A DNA stretch of 64,000 bases from Paecilomyces variotii (lineage: Eukaryota): NCBI GenBank assembly GCA_004022145.1, contig RCNU01000015.1. One strand, given 5' to 3'. Below the pieces are notes generated by a model that was not told the origin of the DNA, ran no database searches, and saw nothing but the letters and a program-made list of their open reading frames with translations. Positions 7,892-21,514 of the stretch are shown here, piece by piece. Position 1 is the first letter of the stretch, and each line of letters starts with the position of its first letter. Made by a program: the position numbers and the translations under genes.

Positions 7892-8821
7892 CTAAACATA
7901 CTCCACCAGAATCCCAGACCCATCATACACAATGCTCGCTTTAGCCACGTATTTCTCCGTACTCAGATTCACAAGATCAACCAGCGCCACCGCCGCTTCA
8001 TCCTCCTCATCCTCCACGGCAAACGTCAAATTCCCAGCCGCAGCTCCCGCCGTCACACCCGTGAATGTGACGGACCCAAAGTTCAAAAATGACACTGTCT
8101 CCCCGCTACTCTGGTAATCCTCGACAGTCCACTCGGCCGACTGGCCAGTCAGGGTGCTGGTGGCGGCAGGTGCGGTGACCGTCGCTGTGGCCCGTTGGCC
8201 GTTGCTCTCGTTCTCAATCACAGCCACCCCAGCGGACGAGGAGGTCGCATACACGGTGGCCACGATGACATCCCCGCCCTTGATCGCCAGCACCTCCGGG
8301 GAGAAATCCACCGCGTTGGCTGGGTACCATTCATACCAAGCGGTGTAGACGTACTCGACTTCCTCTTCGGTGGAGGAGGATGCGGTAACCACGTCGATTC
8401 CCGCTTGTAAAATAGCTCCCGTGTTGACAAAGCCGTCAATCCCTACCCAGATCGAGGCGGCCTCGCCGGCCATGTTACTGGAAACAGTGGGGATGGGCGC
8501 AGTGAAGGCTGCGGCCACAGAGGTGAGGATGGGGGTGGAGGCAAGGTCGGCGCTTAAGAGGGCGGCCCCAGCCCAGTTGGTCGTGTAGTAGTAGGGGGTG
8601 TTTTGCTGGTCGGTCAAGGGAGACTCGGATGCTGATGAGTTGGTGAGAGGCCCTTGCTGCACCTCAGTGTGTGGGACCTGCTTTATCGGCTGGTGCTGGA
8701 AGCGAGGGCCGTTGCATTTTGCTAGGTTGCTGCTGCTGCTGCTGCTGCTGTAACCGCTTGGGGCGCCGTGAACAGCGGCTAGTTGGGCAAGCCACAAGGT
8801 CGTGGAAAGGAAGTTCTTCAT
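7892..8821 (-). CDS. Secreted glutamic peptidase, family G1 (eqolisin/aspergillopepsin II-like)
   Basis: Signal peptide; NWAGA, SIWVGIDG, ILQAGID (catalytic Gln), AWYEWYP, AEWTVED (catalytic Glu); single exon. Confidence 0.95.
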   Translation of the reverse strand: MKNFLSTTLWLAQLAAVHGAPSGYSSSSSSSNLAKCNGPRFQHQPIKQVPHTEVQQGPLTNSSASESPLTDQQNTPYYYTTNWAGAALLSADLASTPILTSVAAAFTAPIPTVSSNMAGEAASIWVGIDGFVNTGAILQAGIDVVTASSSTEEEVEYVYTAWYEWYPANAVDFSPEVLAIKGGDVIVATVYATSSSAGVAVIENESNGQRATATVTAPAATSTLTGQSAEWTVEDYQSSGETVSFLNFGSVTFTGVTAGAAAGNLTFAVEDEEDEAAVALVDLVNLSTEKYVAKASIVYDGSGILVEYV

Positions 8822-9436
8822 ATTGTACTATGGTTTCCGCAGCCTGTGCTCGTAGTAGATAGGTATTTCTCAAATGGCTCGTTGTACGCCGCGTTCAAAA
8901 GAAGTCTTTTAGGGCCACGAAGGTGAAAGAGATTATTAGAGGTCAACCAGGGCTAGGACGCTGCTTGTGGTACTTATAGTGCCAGGAGCCCCTTTCTGTC
9001 TGTCAATTCACAGCTCTTGTGTGGGTTCAACTTGACCTTCTTAGGGTTACCTACCATAACTTTCAGCTATCCGCAGACGTACGTATCCATAAGGTGGGTC
9101 ATACCTGAAAACTGCTGTCTCGCGTGGTTTATAGGCACCACTAGGGAACTGCGGGCGAGTATGTTTCTCGATGCACGGGCCTTGGTATATGTTATATGCC
9201 CGGAACTGGAATAATATTTTTTTGCATACTCGCTGGCGGTGGATAGTCCACTCTCTGCCCGAGTGCTCCCGTCACAATAGTAATTGAAACATGATCTCAC
9301 ACTTAATCTCGAAGCTATATTTATACGAAGAAAAGATGTTCCAGCGTCAACTGGTACAGGAACGAAAGTGGAAAGATGAGCTGCAAGACTTCCATGGAGC
9401 CCCACTCACGCTCACCCCAAGCGGACAGCCTGCAGC

Positions 9437-12400
9437 CTATACACTCATGGTTGCATTATTGTTATTGACCGAGACCCAGGGAATTGCCGAGGGGCTGCGG
9501 GTCAAGAGTGGCGAGGAAACAGTCAGAATTGCAGGGCTGGTGGACACGGCCGCCGTCGCCGAGGTTGTATCATCATCATCACTGTCGTCCGGATTGAAAG
9601 TTACAAATTGTGCTGGCCCGTTGTTGTCTTGCGTACAGCCGCTGACATAGTCCACGCGCATGTGGCAGCCGTTGGAGAAGAGAACTTGTCCGCAGATTTT
9701 GCAACCGCCGAGGTCGGCGTCCATAAGGTGGTCGAATGCACTATATCATCATTTCTGCTCGTTAGCGGGTAACTCCGGCTACCCTTTGGAAAGAGGAGAG
9801 GCGACGTACGCTTGCATTGCCGTGCCCTTCAATTGGCATCCTTCGCCCTTGACGAAGACGCCGCACCCGAAGCCCGCATTCATGTCGTCAGTATAGCAGG
9901 CACCGGAGTTGGAGTTCGCCGAGGTCGTGCTGTGTAGAAAGCTCTTGTCAGTATACATGTTTTCGTTTCACCTGTGGATGCTGAGAGGACAGATTCTGGA
10001 AGGAACACTCACCCATAGATCTCATCGCCTCGAAGGTACGATTTGGCCACCTTGCAGAAGGAGGCGAGGTTTTCGAATGTACCGCATCTCTTGGACATGC
10101 CAGAACAGCTGTAGCTGACCTCGTTTGGAGTCGTATCGGCCAAAGACGTTGCTGCAGGTCCTGTCGTCGTCGACGTGGTTGAGGTAGTGGTGGAAGTGGA
10201 AGTCGATGATGTCGTCGAGGTCGAGGTCGATGTCCAGGACGACTCAGCGGCGCGGAAGGCTGCGTCGATCTTGCTGGCGGCTGATGCCATAACAGCAGTA
10301 TCGGTTTCGGCAGCCCAGGCCATGAAGGGGGTGGCGGCACTCTCGGTGTTCGATATGGTGGTAGTTGTGGTTGTTGCCTCAGCATAGCAGGCAGTAATGG
10401 TGTTGCACGAAATACTCGTCTCCGTGGTGTAGGTCGAGACAGCGGTATCCAAGGTGCTGTATACAAATTCAGTGCACATATCCGCCTCCTCACTCTCGCA
10501 GTCGGTCTCTTCGTTCGTGCAGCCCTCGCCCGAGCACACCCCATTCTTGCAGTTGGTGCCGGAGCAGGAGACCTTATGGCAGTCGGAGCCGCTGCACGTC
10601 CCATCGCTGGTGTTGCACAGCGCGCCTAGGCAGCCGATAGAAAGACAGTCAATTCCAAAACAGGTACCACTGCCACTGCTGCAATCGCTACCGATGCAGC
10701 CCACCGTCTGGCACGATGACCCCTTACAGATGCCCTGGCCGCAATCGTCGCCCATGCAGCCCGTCTCCTCGCAGTCCGAGCCCAGACATATACCGCTATC
10801 GCTATCACAGTTGCTTCCAGAACAGCCAAACTCGGCGCACAGGGATCCTGTACATTCTCCATTCTTGCAGTCTGGGCCAGCGCACTTCTGATGGTGCGGC
10901 GGGTCTGGGTCAGACGGGTCATCGAACCCCGTGGAGTCGCCCCCGTATCCAGAGTTGCAGTTAATCATACAGGGAGCTTCACAAAAGGTAGTGCATTTAT
11001 TTCCGCAGTTAGCCGTACACGTCGGACTGGGTGGGGATCCTTCAGTAAAGTGGATGATCGGCCCTGTAGGAACAGTCGTGGGGAGGGAGGTGGTCGACCA
11101 AGGCCAAGGGGGCACGACGATAGTTCGGTTGGAGGTAACCGTGTGCGAGGCGGTGCCCATACCCAGCGGGTTAGGGTTATCTTGAATCACTATAGGGCCA
11201 ATGCCAATGCTAGGAAACAGAGTTGTTGTACCAGTGGTCTGATTCGACGCGGTAATGTTCCAGTTCCACCATTGCACGGTCCCAGTAATAATCGGATTTA
11301 GCGTAATTGTGGTAGTCTGGACCACCCGAGTGACTGTAGTAGTTATATAGACAGTATTGTTGGTCGTAATGGTGGTAGTGGTTGGCCAGGCCACTTCTAG
11401 CGGAGTGATAAAAGGTCCCGGGTAAATAGTAGTCGGCGATCCCAAGGTACTAGGAGGGAAGATCATATTGATAGGACCAATCCCTGTGACGGTACCATTA
11501 TCCGAGTTATAGATCTCTTGACCCACATAGAAGTCCCCTGTGCCATCGCTCCCACCCTCAGTGCTCGCTCCAGCCATAGATGTGTCCAGAGCATTCATTT
11601 CGTTAGGGTTCGCTAACGATCCCGGCCCTCCGAGGTCAAGTGCCCAACTGAAAAGGCCCCCAAGGCAGAGGTCATTGGCGAAATCAGCCTTTTGCTTAAA
11701 TGTCTTGGCATTGTCGAAAGAAACCCTAAACAGAGAGGAAATTAGAGCAAGCACATTATCCTTCACAGCAAAGCGACTGAAGCAATAAACATACCATTGG
11801 TTTTCGTTCCAGGTAATCCAGTTCACTGCAGCGGCTTCATTATACTGGATTATAGGGTCATACTCTTCCAAAACGCGGTTGATCTCATAATCCGATAGAA
11901 TTCCACTGGTCTGCGTGCACTGACCAGGGGAAGCTCCACCGGCAGTAAAGGCAGATGTATCAAAGGGACATCCTGGAGTGGTGCAGTTGGTCTCGAGCAA
12001 GGTGAAAGAACGGCCATAAAATCCGAGACCAAGAAGTACTTTACCGGGGTCAATGTTGTTGCGCCACAGCAGGTCTAGGCCCTCGCTTATTTCTGTTATA
12101 TTCTCAGTTTAGCTTTTTTCCTGGCGAAAGTTAGGAGAGCAGTGCATGTTTCTTACCCGTAAGATTAGTATGCGGATTGACCACCGAGGACGTATAGTTA
12201 CTCTCTCCATCCCATGTCCCGTGAATATCATACGACATGAAGTTGAAGTAGTCCACGTATTCTGCCATTGACGAGATATCGAAGCCCTTGAGGTACCCTA
12301 CAACATGGCTGAGTGATGAGCTCAAGGTAATCTGCTGTGCTTGACTTACAGTAGGAGGATGGCAAGGTGACTGTAATCCCATACGTATCACCACACTCCT

Positions 12401-13498
12401 CCCTAAGCTCCTTGAGGAAAGAAACATAATTCGCCGTGTCCGCAGTTTTGCCTCCTGGAGCAGAAAGAGATGCAACGTCAGCCCGCAAGTGCAAGAACGA
12501 AGAGAAATATAGTTATTTTACTTACCACGATCACTGGCGGCTGGATATTCCCAGTCAATGTCGATCCCGTCGAAACCGTACTTCTTCATAAAGCTACTCG
12601 CCGAAGTAATAAAGGCCGAACGTGTGCCAGGGAAGCTTACCATCGAGGAAAAGACTTCTCCTCCTAGGTCCCAGCCTCCAACCGAGATGAAAGTTTTTAA
12701 TTCCGACTTCTTCTTCTTCAGGGCCGTAAACTCGGGGATATATTCCTCGTCGTTGGCGTATAAAGTCTCAATCTCGGAAGTCTCACTGTTAATTCCAGCA
12801 AAGGCGTAGTAGAGATGCTAAGACATGCTTGTTAGCTTGAGTTATCTTCGAAAGAATTCGGTGGGTGGGGCTTGAGCATACCGTCCAAGGTGCAACATCG
12901 ATATCCGAAGGGTGAATTACATCACAGGGATGTTGATAATTCCAAGCCTCATAGTACCCTATGTAAACCGCTTCGCTGGAGGTGCCGGAGCAAGATCTAT
13001 AAGGCTGTGTCAGAGTAATCGCGAAAACATATTTCGAACGCTGGACTCACGGCTCAGTAACTGCATCACAATTGCTTTGGCAACCGGTACCACAGAAGTC
13101 TTCTGTCGTTCCACAGAACCTAATCATATGGTCAGAGGTGTTATCAGACACGGTCAGGATATCTCTCTCACCCATAAGGCGAGCAGCAGACATTCAACGG
13201 GCAAGTAGTGTTGGCGACCTCAGCATATGCTATGCGGAAATGTCAGTGTGTCAATGCGTCGAGCACCAAATGCAAGGGGGAACCGCATACGCCCACACTC
13301 CGCTAACGCGTCACAAGTCGATATACACACATCATCGCCGCAGAAGTCTGGGCCGAAGCCGCAATAGCCACTGGAGCTACAACAACCGCTGACACACTCT
13401 GATGTTGAAGAGCAGGTGCCGGATCCGCCTGTGGCTGCAGACACCAACGTCCCCAACAGTGAGCCGAGCAAGAGCCCTCTCGAGAGAGTTGCGTTCAT
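9437..13498 (-). CDS. Subgroup C GH18 chitinase: signal peptide, hevein/CBM18-like modules, GH18, Thr-rich linker, CxGxxC repeats, C-terminal KP4-like domain (multi-intron)
   Basis: ATG 13498 MNATLSRGLLLGSLL; CCSSSGYCGFGPDFCG and CPLNVCCSPYGFCG; ISVGGW; intact catalytic FDGIDIDWEYP (~12540-12580); MSYDIHGTWD; LGLGFYGRSF; CLGGLFSWALD. The junctions I checked (GH18 C-half and last exons) splice in frame to stop 9437. Confidence 0.93.
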
Positions 13499-15260: not shown

Positions 15261-15677
15261 TTTTAAGCCCAATATTTCTACTAAATGTATCAAGTATTTC
15301 TGACATGGTAAATTACCGTACGTGCATTGTTTTTGCGGTATAGCACACCGAAGAATTGTAGACGCTTCGTTTTCCGAAGGAAGCTGTATGTTTAGAAGCG
15401 AGCTCTCTATATGGTTGGGAGCTTCTGTCTCGCTCTTACCGGTGATTTATTTAGATAATAGTAGTCTAGGGGCAGGTGGATCGGGGTTACCTTCTATAGT
15501 CTACTAACACAGGAACAAAAATTAGCATAATCACGATTGTCCCTTAGTCACTAAGGGAAAGGCATATATTATCCTTGGTGAAGCTAGAGCTTGAGCCTGC
15601 GTTTTAACTATTCTTTGCACCCAGGAGCGCAAACGGTATTCATTAAAGCACGAAAGAGCCAGTGAGAGAAAGGTATA

Positions 15678-17088
15678 ATGCGGTCAATCTTCAATACCAA
15701 GGGCCTTCTGGCTGCATGGATCGGGCTATCTACCACTGCCCAGCTGTGGCCCGGGGTGTCGGCTCAGTGGACAATGCGGAACATCGTGCTTGACTCAGTA
15801 TCTTGTGATACCGCCGCTACAAACTATCTCGCAAAAGCCATCTACAACATTCAGAGCATGGTGAGCATAACCCTGGGCATCGGAGCATGCATCAGTGCCT
15901 GCACTATCTCGTGGAGGCTGACAAGATACTATACAGCTTTATAGCACCATATCGGGCCTTTCGACAATTAAAGACAACCTTGGTAAGGCGCGAGAGGACT
16001 TGGAGGCGGCCGACCGAGCCAAGCTAGATCTTTTCATGGCTATGTACGGGATATTCGACCCTGTCGATACGGACGCGATTTCGACCGCGCAAACAACCGT
16101 TGACACAGTCGCCAGTAAGTCTGGAGTGCCTAATGACGCTCAACGGCAGGGTTCGAGACCTAACACAGGCAGCTTTTGCGAACCAACTTCTTGGCGGTCT
16201 GGAAAACGACGCCCTTGAGATCGGGGTCTGCTGTAATAACGATCACTTGAGAGAAATCAAGGGGGTCTGTGAGTTCGCCTTATCTAGGAGTATATTTGGT
16301 TTCGACTATGGCTAAATACTACTGCCGAACATAGATCCTGTCGTATACCGCAGTACTGTCTACCCTGACATGCTGCTTATTCCTGCCGAGGACAATTGCG
16401 ACGGTAATCTAAGAGCCATGATGCAGGAGACCACCACATTCACGAGAGATATTATGACTATCTGCCCGGACTCTTTGCCTATGACCAACCCAGACACAGA
16501 GTATGAGGAAGCCTGGATTGCTCACATTGACCAATATGACACTGGCAGTTTGACCGGAATTCAGGGTGAGTATATGGATGATATTGTGGCCACTACCGGT
16601 GAGGTGACTCTGCTCCATGAGCTGACACACACCGAGTCGTTCTTTGGCGCCAGCGGTGTTCTGGGTATGCATTCCTCTTTCTTTTTTTCCCCGTCTTTTC
16701 CGGGTCTACCTTCCAATACCATGTTAACACACCGCTAATTCTCTTCTTACTACCATATTGAAGAGGATATGTTTACCTCCGAAGAGGAGAATGCCTACCG
16801 ATGGGAGAAATGCTTCGATCTGGCGGACAACCCTGAGACCCGGGCGAATGCGGTAAAAAATGCTGGCAAGTTCTACTAAAAGGCCCTTGATGTTGTCCCT
16901 TAGTATCAAAGCTAATGCCTATACTATCCAGAGACATTCGCATACTTCAGCGCCGGTAAGTATGACTCTGTCTGTATTGGCCTCAGGAAGAAGTGAAAGT
17001 GCTAATTGGGAAAATTGGTATAGGTCTATACTTGGATCAGTGCAATTGGCGGAATGGAGAATGCGAGAACCCGGAGGATGTGGACTAA
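15678..17088 (+). CDS. Secreted zinc metalloprotease-like protein, M35/aspzincin type (multi-intron)
   Basis: Signal peptide MRSIFNTKGLLAAWIGL..VSA; MTICP; LLHELTH (HExxH); spliced continuation GVLEDMF..AYRWEKCFDLA..AVKNAETFAYF parallels the M35 D..Y...C..LA...NADSY pattern; stop TAA 17086-17088. Confidence 0.8.
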
Positions 17089-19760: not shown

Positions 19761-19856
19761 GATAATCAATTCCTGTTTCGAAGATGATATTAATCATTCT
19801 TATATAGGCTCCTCCTACCTGCTCTCTTCTTTCCTCGTGTCAGAACCTCAAGGATT

Positions 19857-21514
19857 ATGCAGTTCTACCCTTTTGTCCTTTCTTGTCTTCTGGCGCAGGC
19901 CGCGGCATCCCCCCGGATCCAGAAACGATGGCTAAACGGGGACACTGCCACTGGCACCACCGATCCAGACGTGACCAGTGACTGTGAGTATTGGGCCAAC
20001 GACATCTCCGCGACCGATACCTGTGCGGAGCTCGAGATGTACTTTGATGCCACTGTCGCTGAGCTCCATGCCTGGAATCCCTCGCTGCTGGAAGACTACT
20101 GCGTGCTGATCGAAGGATGGAGCTACTGCGTCGAGGGTCCGGCCGTGACTGTCACCGCGGCTGCGTCCACTACGACGAATACCGCGATCCCAGTTGTCGG
20201 TTTCACCGAGGTGACGGATTTTGTGACCAGCACGACCCTCGCGGCTGCGACTGCTACCTCTGCATCGGCCACCACTGTCACCACTTACTCGGGCGGAGTG
20301 CCTTCACCAACGCAGAGTGGCCTCGTGGGGGCGTGCAATGAGTACTACTATGTTAAATCAACAGATACTTGCTATACGATCCAGGATCTGTACTTGGATT
20401 TCACACTCAATGAGTTCTACACTTGGAACCCGTTAGTCTTCCCTATATCTTGAGTCTTGGCGAGAGCAATTCACATGTAGGAATGCAAAGCTAACCAGGT
20501 CACATCCTTTCAGTTCTATCTCGACAGGCTGCGTCGGTTTGGAGCCAGGCTACTATGTCTGTGTTGGGGTAACCGGGGGTACTTCTAACATTGCCACTGC
20601 TACTGCCACTATCGCTGGAACAACAACCGCAACTGCAACCTCGTCCTTACCATACGAGCCTCAGCAGACCGGTCTTACATCGAACTGTGAGTTTCCTCAC
20701 CCCATGAATATAGCAATGTTATTGTCCTTCCGCGCAGTACCTGACAGCCAAGCTTAATGGCAGGCGATGATTATTACTATGTAAACGAGGGCGATGCCTG
20801 CACCGCTATCCTCGAGGAGTTCGATATCACCATGGCTGAATTCTACGCCTGGAATCCCGCGGTAGGGTCCGACTGTAACACTATGGAATATGGGTACTAT
20901 GTCTGCGTGGGCGTCCCTGGTTCGTCCTGTCTTTTCCCTTCACCCTTAATGAGATCAAGGAAGCGATGACATTCATTCCTAACATTAATTCTACAACCCA
21001 ACTAGGCTCTAATGCAACAACTATGACCACGCAGTCCATAACCCCCCCTACTGCCACCATCGCCTCAACTACTACCACCGCATCTACTTTAATTCTAACC
21101 ACAACAACTACAACAGCAACTATTATAGGCCCCTCCCCGACCCAAACTGGCATTACCACTAACTGTACCACCTACTACGAGGCCACCGCTAACGACAGTT
21201 GCTGGTCAATCGTGACGGAAAAATACGCCTACCTCACCGAGACTGAATTCATCGACTGGAACCCGGCCGTCGGGTCTGACTGCACCAGCCTGTGGGCAGG
21301 CTACTACTACTGCGTGGCAACTACTACCGTCGCCCCTATGCCGGACATCACCGACAGTTGCACTAGTTACTACCTTGTCGCCGAGGGGGATAGCTGCTAT
21401 TCTATTGAGCAGGCGTACGGGATCTCCGCCGCCGACTTTGTGGAGTGGAATCCTGCCGTGGGGGACAGTTGTGCGTCGCTGTGGGAGGGGTATTATGTTT
21501 GTGTGGCTGTATGA
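19857..21514 (+). CDS. Secreted LysM-domain protein with five fungal-type (Cys-containing) LysM modules
   Basis: Signal peptide, IQKR (Kex2-like), five C..Y....D.C..I.......F..WNP....C..L..GY.YCV modules separated by Thr-rich linkers; 3 introns. Confidence 0.95.

Follow-up and report, generated by a model that had tools for sequence, protein, structure and literature searches.

The 64,000-nucleotide stretch of Paecilomyces variotii contig RCNU01000015.1 analysed here (hereafter the window) carries on its minus strand, from 13498 to 9437, a gene whose sequence identifies its product as a secreted, catalytically intact chitinase from family 18 of the glycoside hydrolases (GH18), belonging to group C, the killer-toxin-like group. 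We found that the last three exons of this gene encode a C-terminal domain of about 110 residues with ten cysteines, which on sequence grounds belongs to Pfam family MU117 (PF15474), is predicted to adopt over its whole length the two-layer α/β fold of the toxin KP4 from Ustilago maydis virus, and is a distant homologue of that toxin. We hold the identity and the fold of the domain, taken jointly, to be close to certain, and we give a slightly better than even chance to the whole explanation, in which a KP4-fold MU117 domain on a group C chitinase would also be delivered by the enzyme against other fungi.

The gene product corresponds to a protein deposited at NCBI as "CAZyme family GH18 [Paecilomyces variotii]" (1180 residues, here P0001), which in a tblastn search of the window is essentially identical, introns aside, and which defines a coding span at 9437..13498 (minus strand, like all features of this gene), with the ATG checked at 13498-13496 and the stop codon TAG at 9439-9437. 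From its N-terminus the protein is composed of a hydrophobic, signal-peptide-like start, two chitin-binding type 1 modules (Pfam Chitin_bind_1, two stretches), the GH18 domain (expectation value, E, of 2.2e-69), a Thr-rich region, Cys-rich repeats, a Ser/Thr-rich linker (P0001 931-962, at 10126..10221 by the P0001 sequence), the KP4-fold domain and a tail. The exons of the catalytic domain (P0001 123-459) lie at 11637..12970, approximate limits worked out by hand from the Pfam match, the open reading frames (ORFs) and tblastn, and the catalytic motif DGIDIDWE is seen in P0001. A GH18 domain with DxxDxDxE, set in a large multi-domain secreted protein with an N-terminal CBM18, is what characterizes group C, and P0001 has all of these. 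LysM domains mark subgroup C-II and are missing from C-I (preprint 10.1101/2024.10.25.620242); Pfam at E <= 1 found no LysM in P0001, which by domain make-up alone therefore fits C-I rather than C-II.

The domain itself is assembled from three exon pieces. The first closes the large exon at 10013..10125 and supplies residues 1-37 and two bases of Gly38, with Cys7, Cys14 and Cys24; by tblastn, residues 1-38 map to 10125-10012 at 100% identity, and the exon ends with ATC TAT GG at 10013, followed directly by gtgagt. Intron 1 (9930..10012, 83 nt, absent from P0001) has the donor GTGAGT, a branch-like tactgac and the acceptor cag. Exon B (9810..9929) encodes the middle of the domain, from TTSANS to TAMQ; the GCGVFVKG strand lies here, as do Cys49, Cys60 and Cys69. 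It is followed by intron 2 (9741..9809, 69 nt; donor GTACGT, branch-like gctaac, acceptor tag). The start of exon C (9635..9740) completes the domain with the second helix, GCKICG, VDYVSGC and Cys91, Cys94, Cys103 and Cys113, and the exon then runs on into a tail of 65 residues plus the TAG stop (9437..9634), acidic, Ser/Thr-rich and poorly conserved, with a conserved IPW(V/S)S motif. Joined in silico, the three stretches give 174 residues and a stop, identical to P0001 over 164 consecutive residues (P0001 967-1130). A first-pass annotation of this DNA had proposed the same three-exon splice and set the domain at 9635..10113; its peptide is reproduced exactly as written, and its limits are exact as well, the Tyr codon of YSCSG starting at 10113 and the codon of the last Cys closing at 9635.

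Public sequencing runs were searched with 9300-10400, and four of the 21 listed runs were aligned to 8800-10800. One contig from the run X1 (5574 nt, minus strand) omits exactly 9741-9809 and 9930-10012, both with GT..AG ends, which agrees to the base with the splice that had been proposed, and this same single contig includes all three domain exons together with the upstream chitinase exon. The label of X1 as RNA is a guess, yet a spliced contig cannot derive from intron-bearing DNA and so constitutes transcript evidence. A contig from X2, an RNA-Seq metatranscriptome, covers 9192-9602, from the last part of exon C through the 3' untranslated region (UTR; 9192..9436), and closes before 9192 with a run of 12 loose T, the poly(A) tail of a minus-strand mRNA, placing the poly(A) site near 9192, about 245 nt past the stop. 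The contigs of X3 and X5 do not bridge both introns, X5 falling short of them, and X3 has an unspliced contig over intron 2 that may be DNA or pre-mRNA. The last three exons are real, spliced as proposed and transcribed. In the public model P0001 an intron follows IPWVS in the tail, and about 50 residues from 9195-8977 are appended (region 8977-9470, minus strand); the X1 contig, however, is continuous over 9102-9740 and reads the stop at 9439-9437, so that the extra 3' intron of P0001 is unsupported and this stop is the one to be used. The corrected protein ends in ...IPWVSVNNNNATMSV, and the tails of homologues read likewise. We also considered a glycosylphosphatidylinositol anchor for the tail and rejected it by eye because its C-terminal end is not hydrophobic.

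The family assignment comes from the excised domain. As a 123-residue segment (P0001 963-1085) it matches MU117 with 45.8 bits (E = 1.1e-11) over positions 2-105 of the 105-position profile, the gathering cut-off being 30.4 bits. Exon C alone reaches 25.9 bits over profile positions 80-105, which is below the cut-off, and exons A and B singly have no Pfam match. The first-pass annotation had named the domain killer-toxin-like after KP4 and offered the Pfam Kp4 hidden Markov model (PF09044, gathering cut-off 27.8 bits) as a check, and here it did not hold: the excised domain has no Kp4 match even at E <= 10, and its family by Pfam is MU117. At the same E limit it is matched neither by Hce2 (PF14856) nor by any Pfam lectin or carbohydrate-binding module (CBM) family. 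The related claim that the domain is easily missed proved wrong for gene models, P0001 containing it, and right for full-length Pfam scans. In such scans of ten relatives MU117 scored above its cut-off in four (P0004, P0005, P0007 and P0009) and weakly in the fragment P0008, and hmmscan missed it at E <= 1 in P0001, P0002, P0003, P0006 and P0010, probably through the composition correction applied to long, low-complexity proteins. With half of the relatives scanned lacking the assignment, standard annotation misses the domain and surveys that rely on it undercount the fusion; on some relatives GH18 and PF15474 are already annotated together in databases.

In comparisons with eight relatives, 62-98 of the 113 domain residues are identical, as are 225-283 of 337 in GH18 but only 14-30 of 55 in the tail, and by these counts the domain is about as conserved as the catalytic domain and the tail is not. 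A phmmer search of 1.84 billion representatives returned 70 proteins at E <= 0.001, 20 of them at 1e-10 and six at 1e-30. We aligned the domain with 30 hand-picked short phmmer hits of 94-230 residues, long fused proteins and small fragments being excluded, and among the columns of the resulting alignment (A2) six, made up of five Cys and a Gly, do not vary at all, while a further five, two of them Cys, are near-invariant. All 31 members of A2 match MU117 at E <= 0.1, 30 of them over the cut-off and P0066 below it with 26.4 bits; Kp4 is matched by 11/31 at the same E limit, two of which exceed its cut-off (P0031 with 34.1 and P0059 with 30.2 bits). Word-index searches for stand-alone close relatives of the domain found only P0011 and P0008, both truncated models or fragments, and with P0031 as query only P0031 itself and P0080.

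The relation to KP4 has a structural and a sequence side, of which the structural evidence is direct and strong and the sequence evidence indirect. An AlphaFold2 model built on the 31 rows of A2 has a mean predicted local distance difference test score (pLDDT) of 88.3 and a predicted template modelling (TM) score of 0.83. Foldseek places KP4 (1kpt_A) first for this model (E = 4.5e-3, probability 1.00, TM 0.59/0.68), and a VIA-align superposition on 1KPT gives Z 11.6 with a root-mean-square deviation (rmsd) of 2.3 Å over 98 of 105 residues at 19% identity. Among all 48,161 PDB representatives the top match is likewise 1KPT (Z 11.2; rmsd 2.3-2.4 Å over all comparisons), with Zt-KP4 (8ACX) second (Z 8.2, and 8.2-8.9 over all comparisons), followed by lectins and DUF26 at Z 4.6-6.7, with everything else at 2.7 or below. 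A comparison of an AlphaFold model with the KP4 structure through Foldseek had been suggested beforehand, and 1KPT came out as the top match, well above all others. The SMK toxin, which the first-pass annotation named beside KP4, is not in any structural match list, which is no proof that the folds differ. The nearest ESM Atlas cluster is a Kp4 cluster with a score of 0.81, below the meaningful level of 0.9 and so a lead only. By sequence, phmmer takes the domain to P0031 at E = 1.9e-9, and P0031 in turn passes the Kp4 model. Moreover, a profile of seven family members selected for their Kp4 matches (A3) finds 1KPT as its best PDB chain (E = 9.5e-4, 22.4 bits, profile 33-131 against chain 3-105), whereas phmmer searches of PDB sequences with the domain and with P0031 gave no matches at E <= 10. 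The motif pairings earlier proposed by eye, namely the CxGxxxC start, the central FV/YV strand, GCxxCG and the terminal xYVxxC, all recur in the HMMER alignment of this profile with 1KPT. KP4 and the domain have in common these four features, ten cysteines each and, by the model, the two-layer α/β fold over the whole 105-residue toxin; however, KP4 is a free 105-residue protein encoded by a virus, and the domain described here sits at the tail of a chain of about 1140 residues.

That PF15474 is connected with the KP4 fold has been published before. De Guillen et al. (2025; PMC12382754) assign the PF15474 cluster kcl38-A (eight proteins) to Group 3 of a KP4 structural superfamily, and the domain described here passes the cut-off of that family over the full profile. 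The same paper describes KP4 as blocking Ca2+ uptake and Zt-KP4 proteins as inhibiting fungal growth, and places the Hce2 proteins, which also have the KP4 fold, in Group 2; neither "chitinase" nor "GH18" occurs in it. A candidate effector of Colletotrichum lupini with both PF09044 and PF15474 has been described as well (PMC7589765). The same architecture is described for the C-II chitinases with Hce2/Ecp2 at the C-terminus, namely A. nidulans ChiC2-2, T. virens TVC3 and N. crassa GH18-6 and GH18-8, and A. nidulans without ChiC2-2 is reported to kill other fungi less well (preprint 10.1101/2024.10.25.620242); Hce2/Ecp2 is indeed, as the first-pass annotation stated, the better-known payload of such enzymes. 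Both kinds of protein join a group C GH18 enzyme to a small Cys-rich domain of effector type at the C-terminus and have a LysM-only gene nearby, but the domain here belongs to another Pfam family and another structural group, and its chitinase lacks LysM. The zymocin α/β subunits of Kluyveromyces lactis and the zymocin-like clusters of filamentous fungi likewise use a chitin-binding chitinase as the wall-engaging part of an antifungal system; their toxic part, however, is a separate γ subunit, a tRNA nuclease from a neighbouring gene, whereas in the present protein the candidate toxic part is joined to the enzyme in cis and is unrelated in fold. Similar α/β sandwiches are also found in the Coprinus comatus lectin Y3, the Ginkgo Gnk2/DUF26 proteins and an α-galactosyl lectin of Lyophyllum decastes (Z 4.6-6.7), but their scores are far below those of KP4 and the domain has no sequence-family match to them. 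Our literature search, with subscription reviews (e.g. Tzelepis and Karlsson 2019) and supplements outside its scope, found no paper describing a GH18 chitinase that carries an MU117 or KP4-type domain.

The domain also occurs in other settings. Of 22 long relatives scanned, 19 have MU117, always near the C-terminus, and the partner families among these 19 are GH18 (five), Spherulin4 (three), Fungal_lectin_2, Peptidase_S8 and fn3 (one each), with no other family in eight. The three without MU117, namely P0018 (Peptidase_A4), P0024 (p450) and P0070 (NACHT-LRR), look like merged models or chance matches. Stand-alone members of 117-167 residues have signal-peptide-like starts, and in several of them KR or AR directly precedes the first Cys. 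The ten relative clusters with names come from Aspergillus (including A. fumigatus), Fusarium, Colletotrichum and Pseudogymnoascus. In P. variotii itself a second GH18 chitinase, P0005 (1000 residues, encoded outside the window), has MU117 with 36.2 bits, and the species therefore has at least two such fusions; within the window tblastn found the domain only once.

For the function of the domain we favour an antifungal toxin payload, a reading that our analysis leaves just short of an even chance. In this mechanism the chitinase would bind and open the chitin layer of a competing fungus, and the KP4-fold module would thereby reach the exposed plasma membrane and inhibit growth, in parallel with KP4, the Fusarium KP4-like proteins and the Hce2/Zt-KP4 effectors. 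We infer growth inhibition because KP4 perturbs Ca2+ uptake, Zt-KP4 inhibits fungi and Hce2 chitinases aid killing, and the module would most probably work without being released from the enzyme, there being no processing site between the two. Several points weigh against the explanation as a whole. The failure of the Kp4 model to match the excised domain is one of these, and the A3 profile that reaches 1KPT was built from members picked because they match Kp4; the unselected 31-row profile did not find 1KPT in the PDB at E <= 10, returning two unrelated weak chains only. Both proteins have ten cysteines, but in the profile alignment six of the ten align exactly, a seventh is off by one and three differ on each side. 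Lys42 of KP4, which we take to be important for its activity, aligns with a near-invariant Gly of the family (Gly47 of the domain). The structure of the domain is a prediction, its nearest structural neighbours after the KP4 proteins are lectins, and the same domain terminates other secreted enzymes in the fashion of a CBM. Finally, no dibasic or Kex2-type site was found in the linker, the sole [KR]R of the 1180 residues being at residue 974, inside the domain and not conserved among homologues, and release as a free toxin is on this evidence not indicated.

Some of these same points suit a different reading, in which the domain is a non-toxic, lectin-like or CBM-like targeting module that binds a wall glycan or surface component and holds the enzyme on its substrate. 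A C-terminal position behind a Ser/Thr linker is the classic place of a binding module, the domain ends recognisable secreted proteins in 11/22 long relatives, and carbohydrate-binding proteins are among its structural neighbours (the Y3 lectin at Z 6.7, DUF26 and Gnk2 with mannose at 5.4-5.7 and the α-galactosyl lectin at 4.6). We regard it as a serious rival, given that several other hydrolases end likewise, that the linker has no processing site and that Lys42 is replaced by Gly. However, KP4 (Z 11.2-11.6) and Zt-KP4 (Z 8.2-8.9) score far above any lectin, no Pfam lectin or CBM family matches the domain, stand-alone secreted members of 117-167 residues would be unusual for a mere anchor, and the chitinase already has two chitin-binding modules, which together make this reading possible but on the unlikely side. 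A role in the development of the producer itself, for example in wall remodelling during sporulation and with no action on other organisms, we consider improbable. It could appeal to the name of the Pfam family, which refers to meiotic up-regulation, and the founding member of MU117 is from fission yeast. Chitinases also remodel the wall of their producer (preprint 10.1101/2024.10.25.620242). On the other hand, some family members pass the Kp4 model too, one has been put forward as a candidate effector whose expression rises late in plant infection (PMC7589765), induction of group C chitinases by other fungi has been reported (preprint 10.1101/2024.10.25.620242), and transcripts occur in food-fermentation metatranscriptomes, hence not in the sexual stage only, the contigs giving no expression levels. 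A gene-prediction artefact, with the chitinase in truth ending upstream of these exons, is suggested by the partly wrong 3' end of P0001 and by the merged or truncated models among database relatives (P0018, P0024 and P0011), but it is already refuted by the one spliced RNA contig that spans the three exons and the upstream chitinase exon, which also answers the first-pass annotation's own proviso that transcripts might end before these exons. With the reading frame, the splice signals and the ten cysteines conserved in Aspergillus and Penicillium orthologues, the probability that remains for an artefact is negligible.

Elsewhere in the gene, a region of short Cys/Gly-rich repeats, roughly C-x2-G-x-C units without a Pfam family, lies at about 10440-10900 (minus strand; P0001 about 701-860) and is mostly missing in the paralogue P0005 (37 of 160 residues identical, 61 aligned), and an in-frame 69-nt intron at about 11725-11793 (minus strand) is read through by the ORF (23 extra codons, from ..NENQW to VSFDN..) and omitted in P0001. 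Downstream, a 54-nt GT..AG joint at 9048-9101 on the minus strand, present in contigs of X1 and X5 (the X5 contig starting at 9193), lies downstream of the chitinase poly(A) site and upstream of a gene at 7892-8827 (minus strand) for a secreted Peptidase A4 family protein (Pfam E = 1.2e-46), and may be an intron in the 5' UTR of that gene. The relative P0018 joins a chitinase tail to Peptidase_A4, suggesting that the same gene order exists elsewhere and that P0018 is a merged model. On the plus strand, about 6 kb upstream of the chitinase start, 19794-21514 holds a gene for a secreted LysM-repeat protein (LysM at E = 5e-9 in its second frame, and several CxxY..WNP repeats by eye), and LysM-only genes beside group C chitinases have been described (preprint 10.1101/2024.10.25.620242). 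Frames at 15666-16738 (plus strand) have a signal-peptide-like start and a HELTH (HExxH-like) motif and no Pfam match, and their product may be a secreted metalloprotease-like protein.

The domain brings an annotation gap to light, as full-length Pfam scans miss it in 5/10 relatives and the 3' end of the public gene model is wrong. Group C chitinases have been named killer-toxin-like only for their resemblance to the carrier subunit of zymocin, and a toxin-fold module fused to a group C chitinase would make that name concrete and testable. If the module serves for binding, the KP4 fold would have been reused for targeting, which bears on how the Hce2 and KP4 effectors are read. If the module is antifungal, the fusions become candidate biocontrol proteins and a possible explanation of the antagonism shown by food-spoilage and clinical moulds. 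At present we can offer only as a doubtful extension that MU117 is a portable antifungal warhead, one KP4-fold toxin fused in cis to several wall-attacking secreted enzymes, with C-I type chitinases, Spherulin4-type hydrolases, subtilases and lectins as carriers in the Eurotiales and other ascomycetes including Aspergillus fumigatus, each fusion then amounting to a killer toxin on one polypeptide chain, whose enzyme part would open the wall and deliver a membrane-active module. If true, such proteins would be the cis-linked counterpart of the trans-acting zymocin systems of chitinase and γ-toxin, and a role in interference competition would fall to the C-terminal half of C-I chitinases, which has had no function assigned to it so far.

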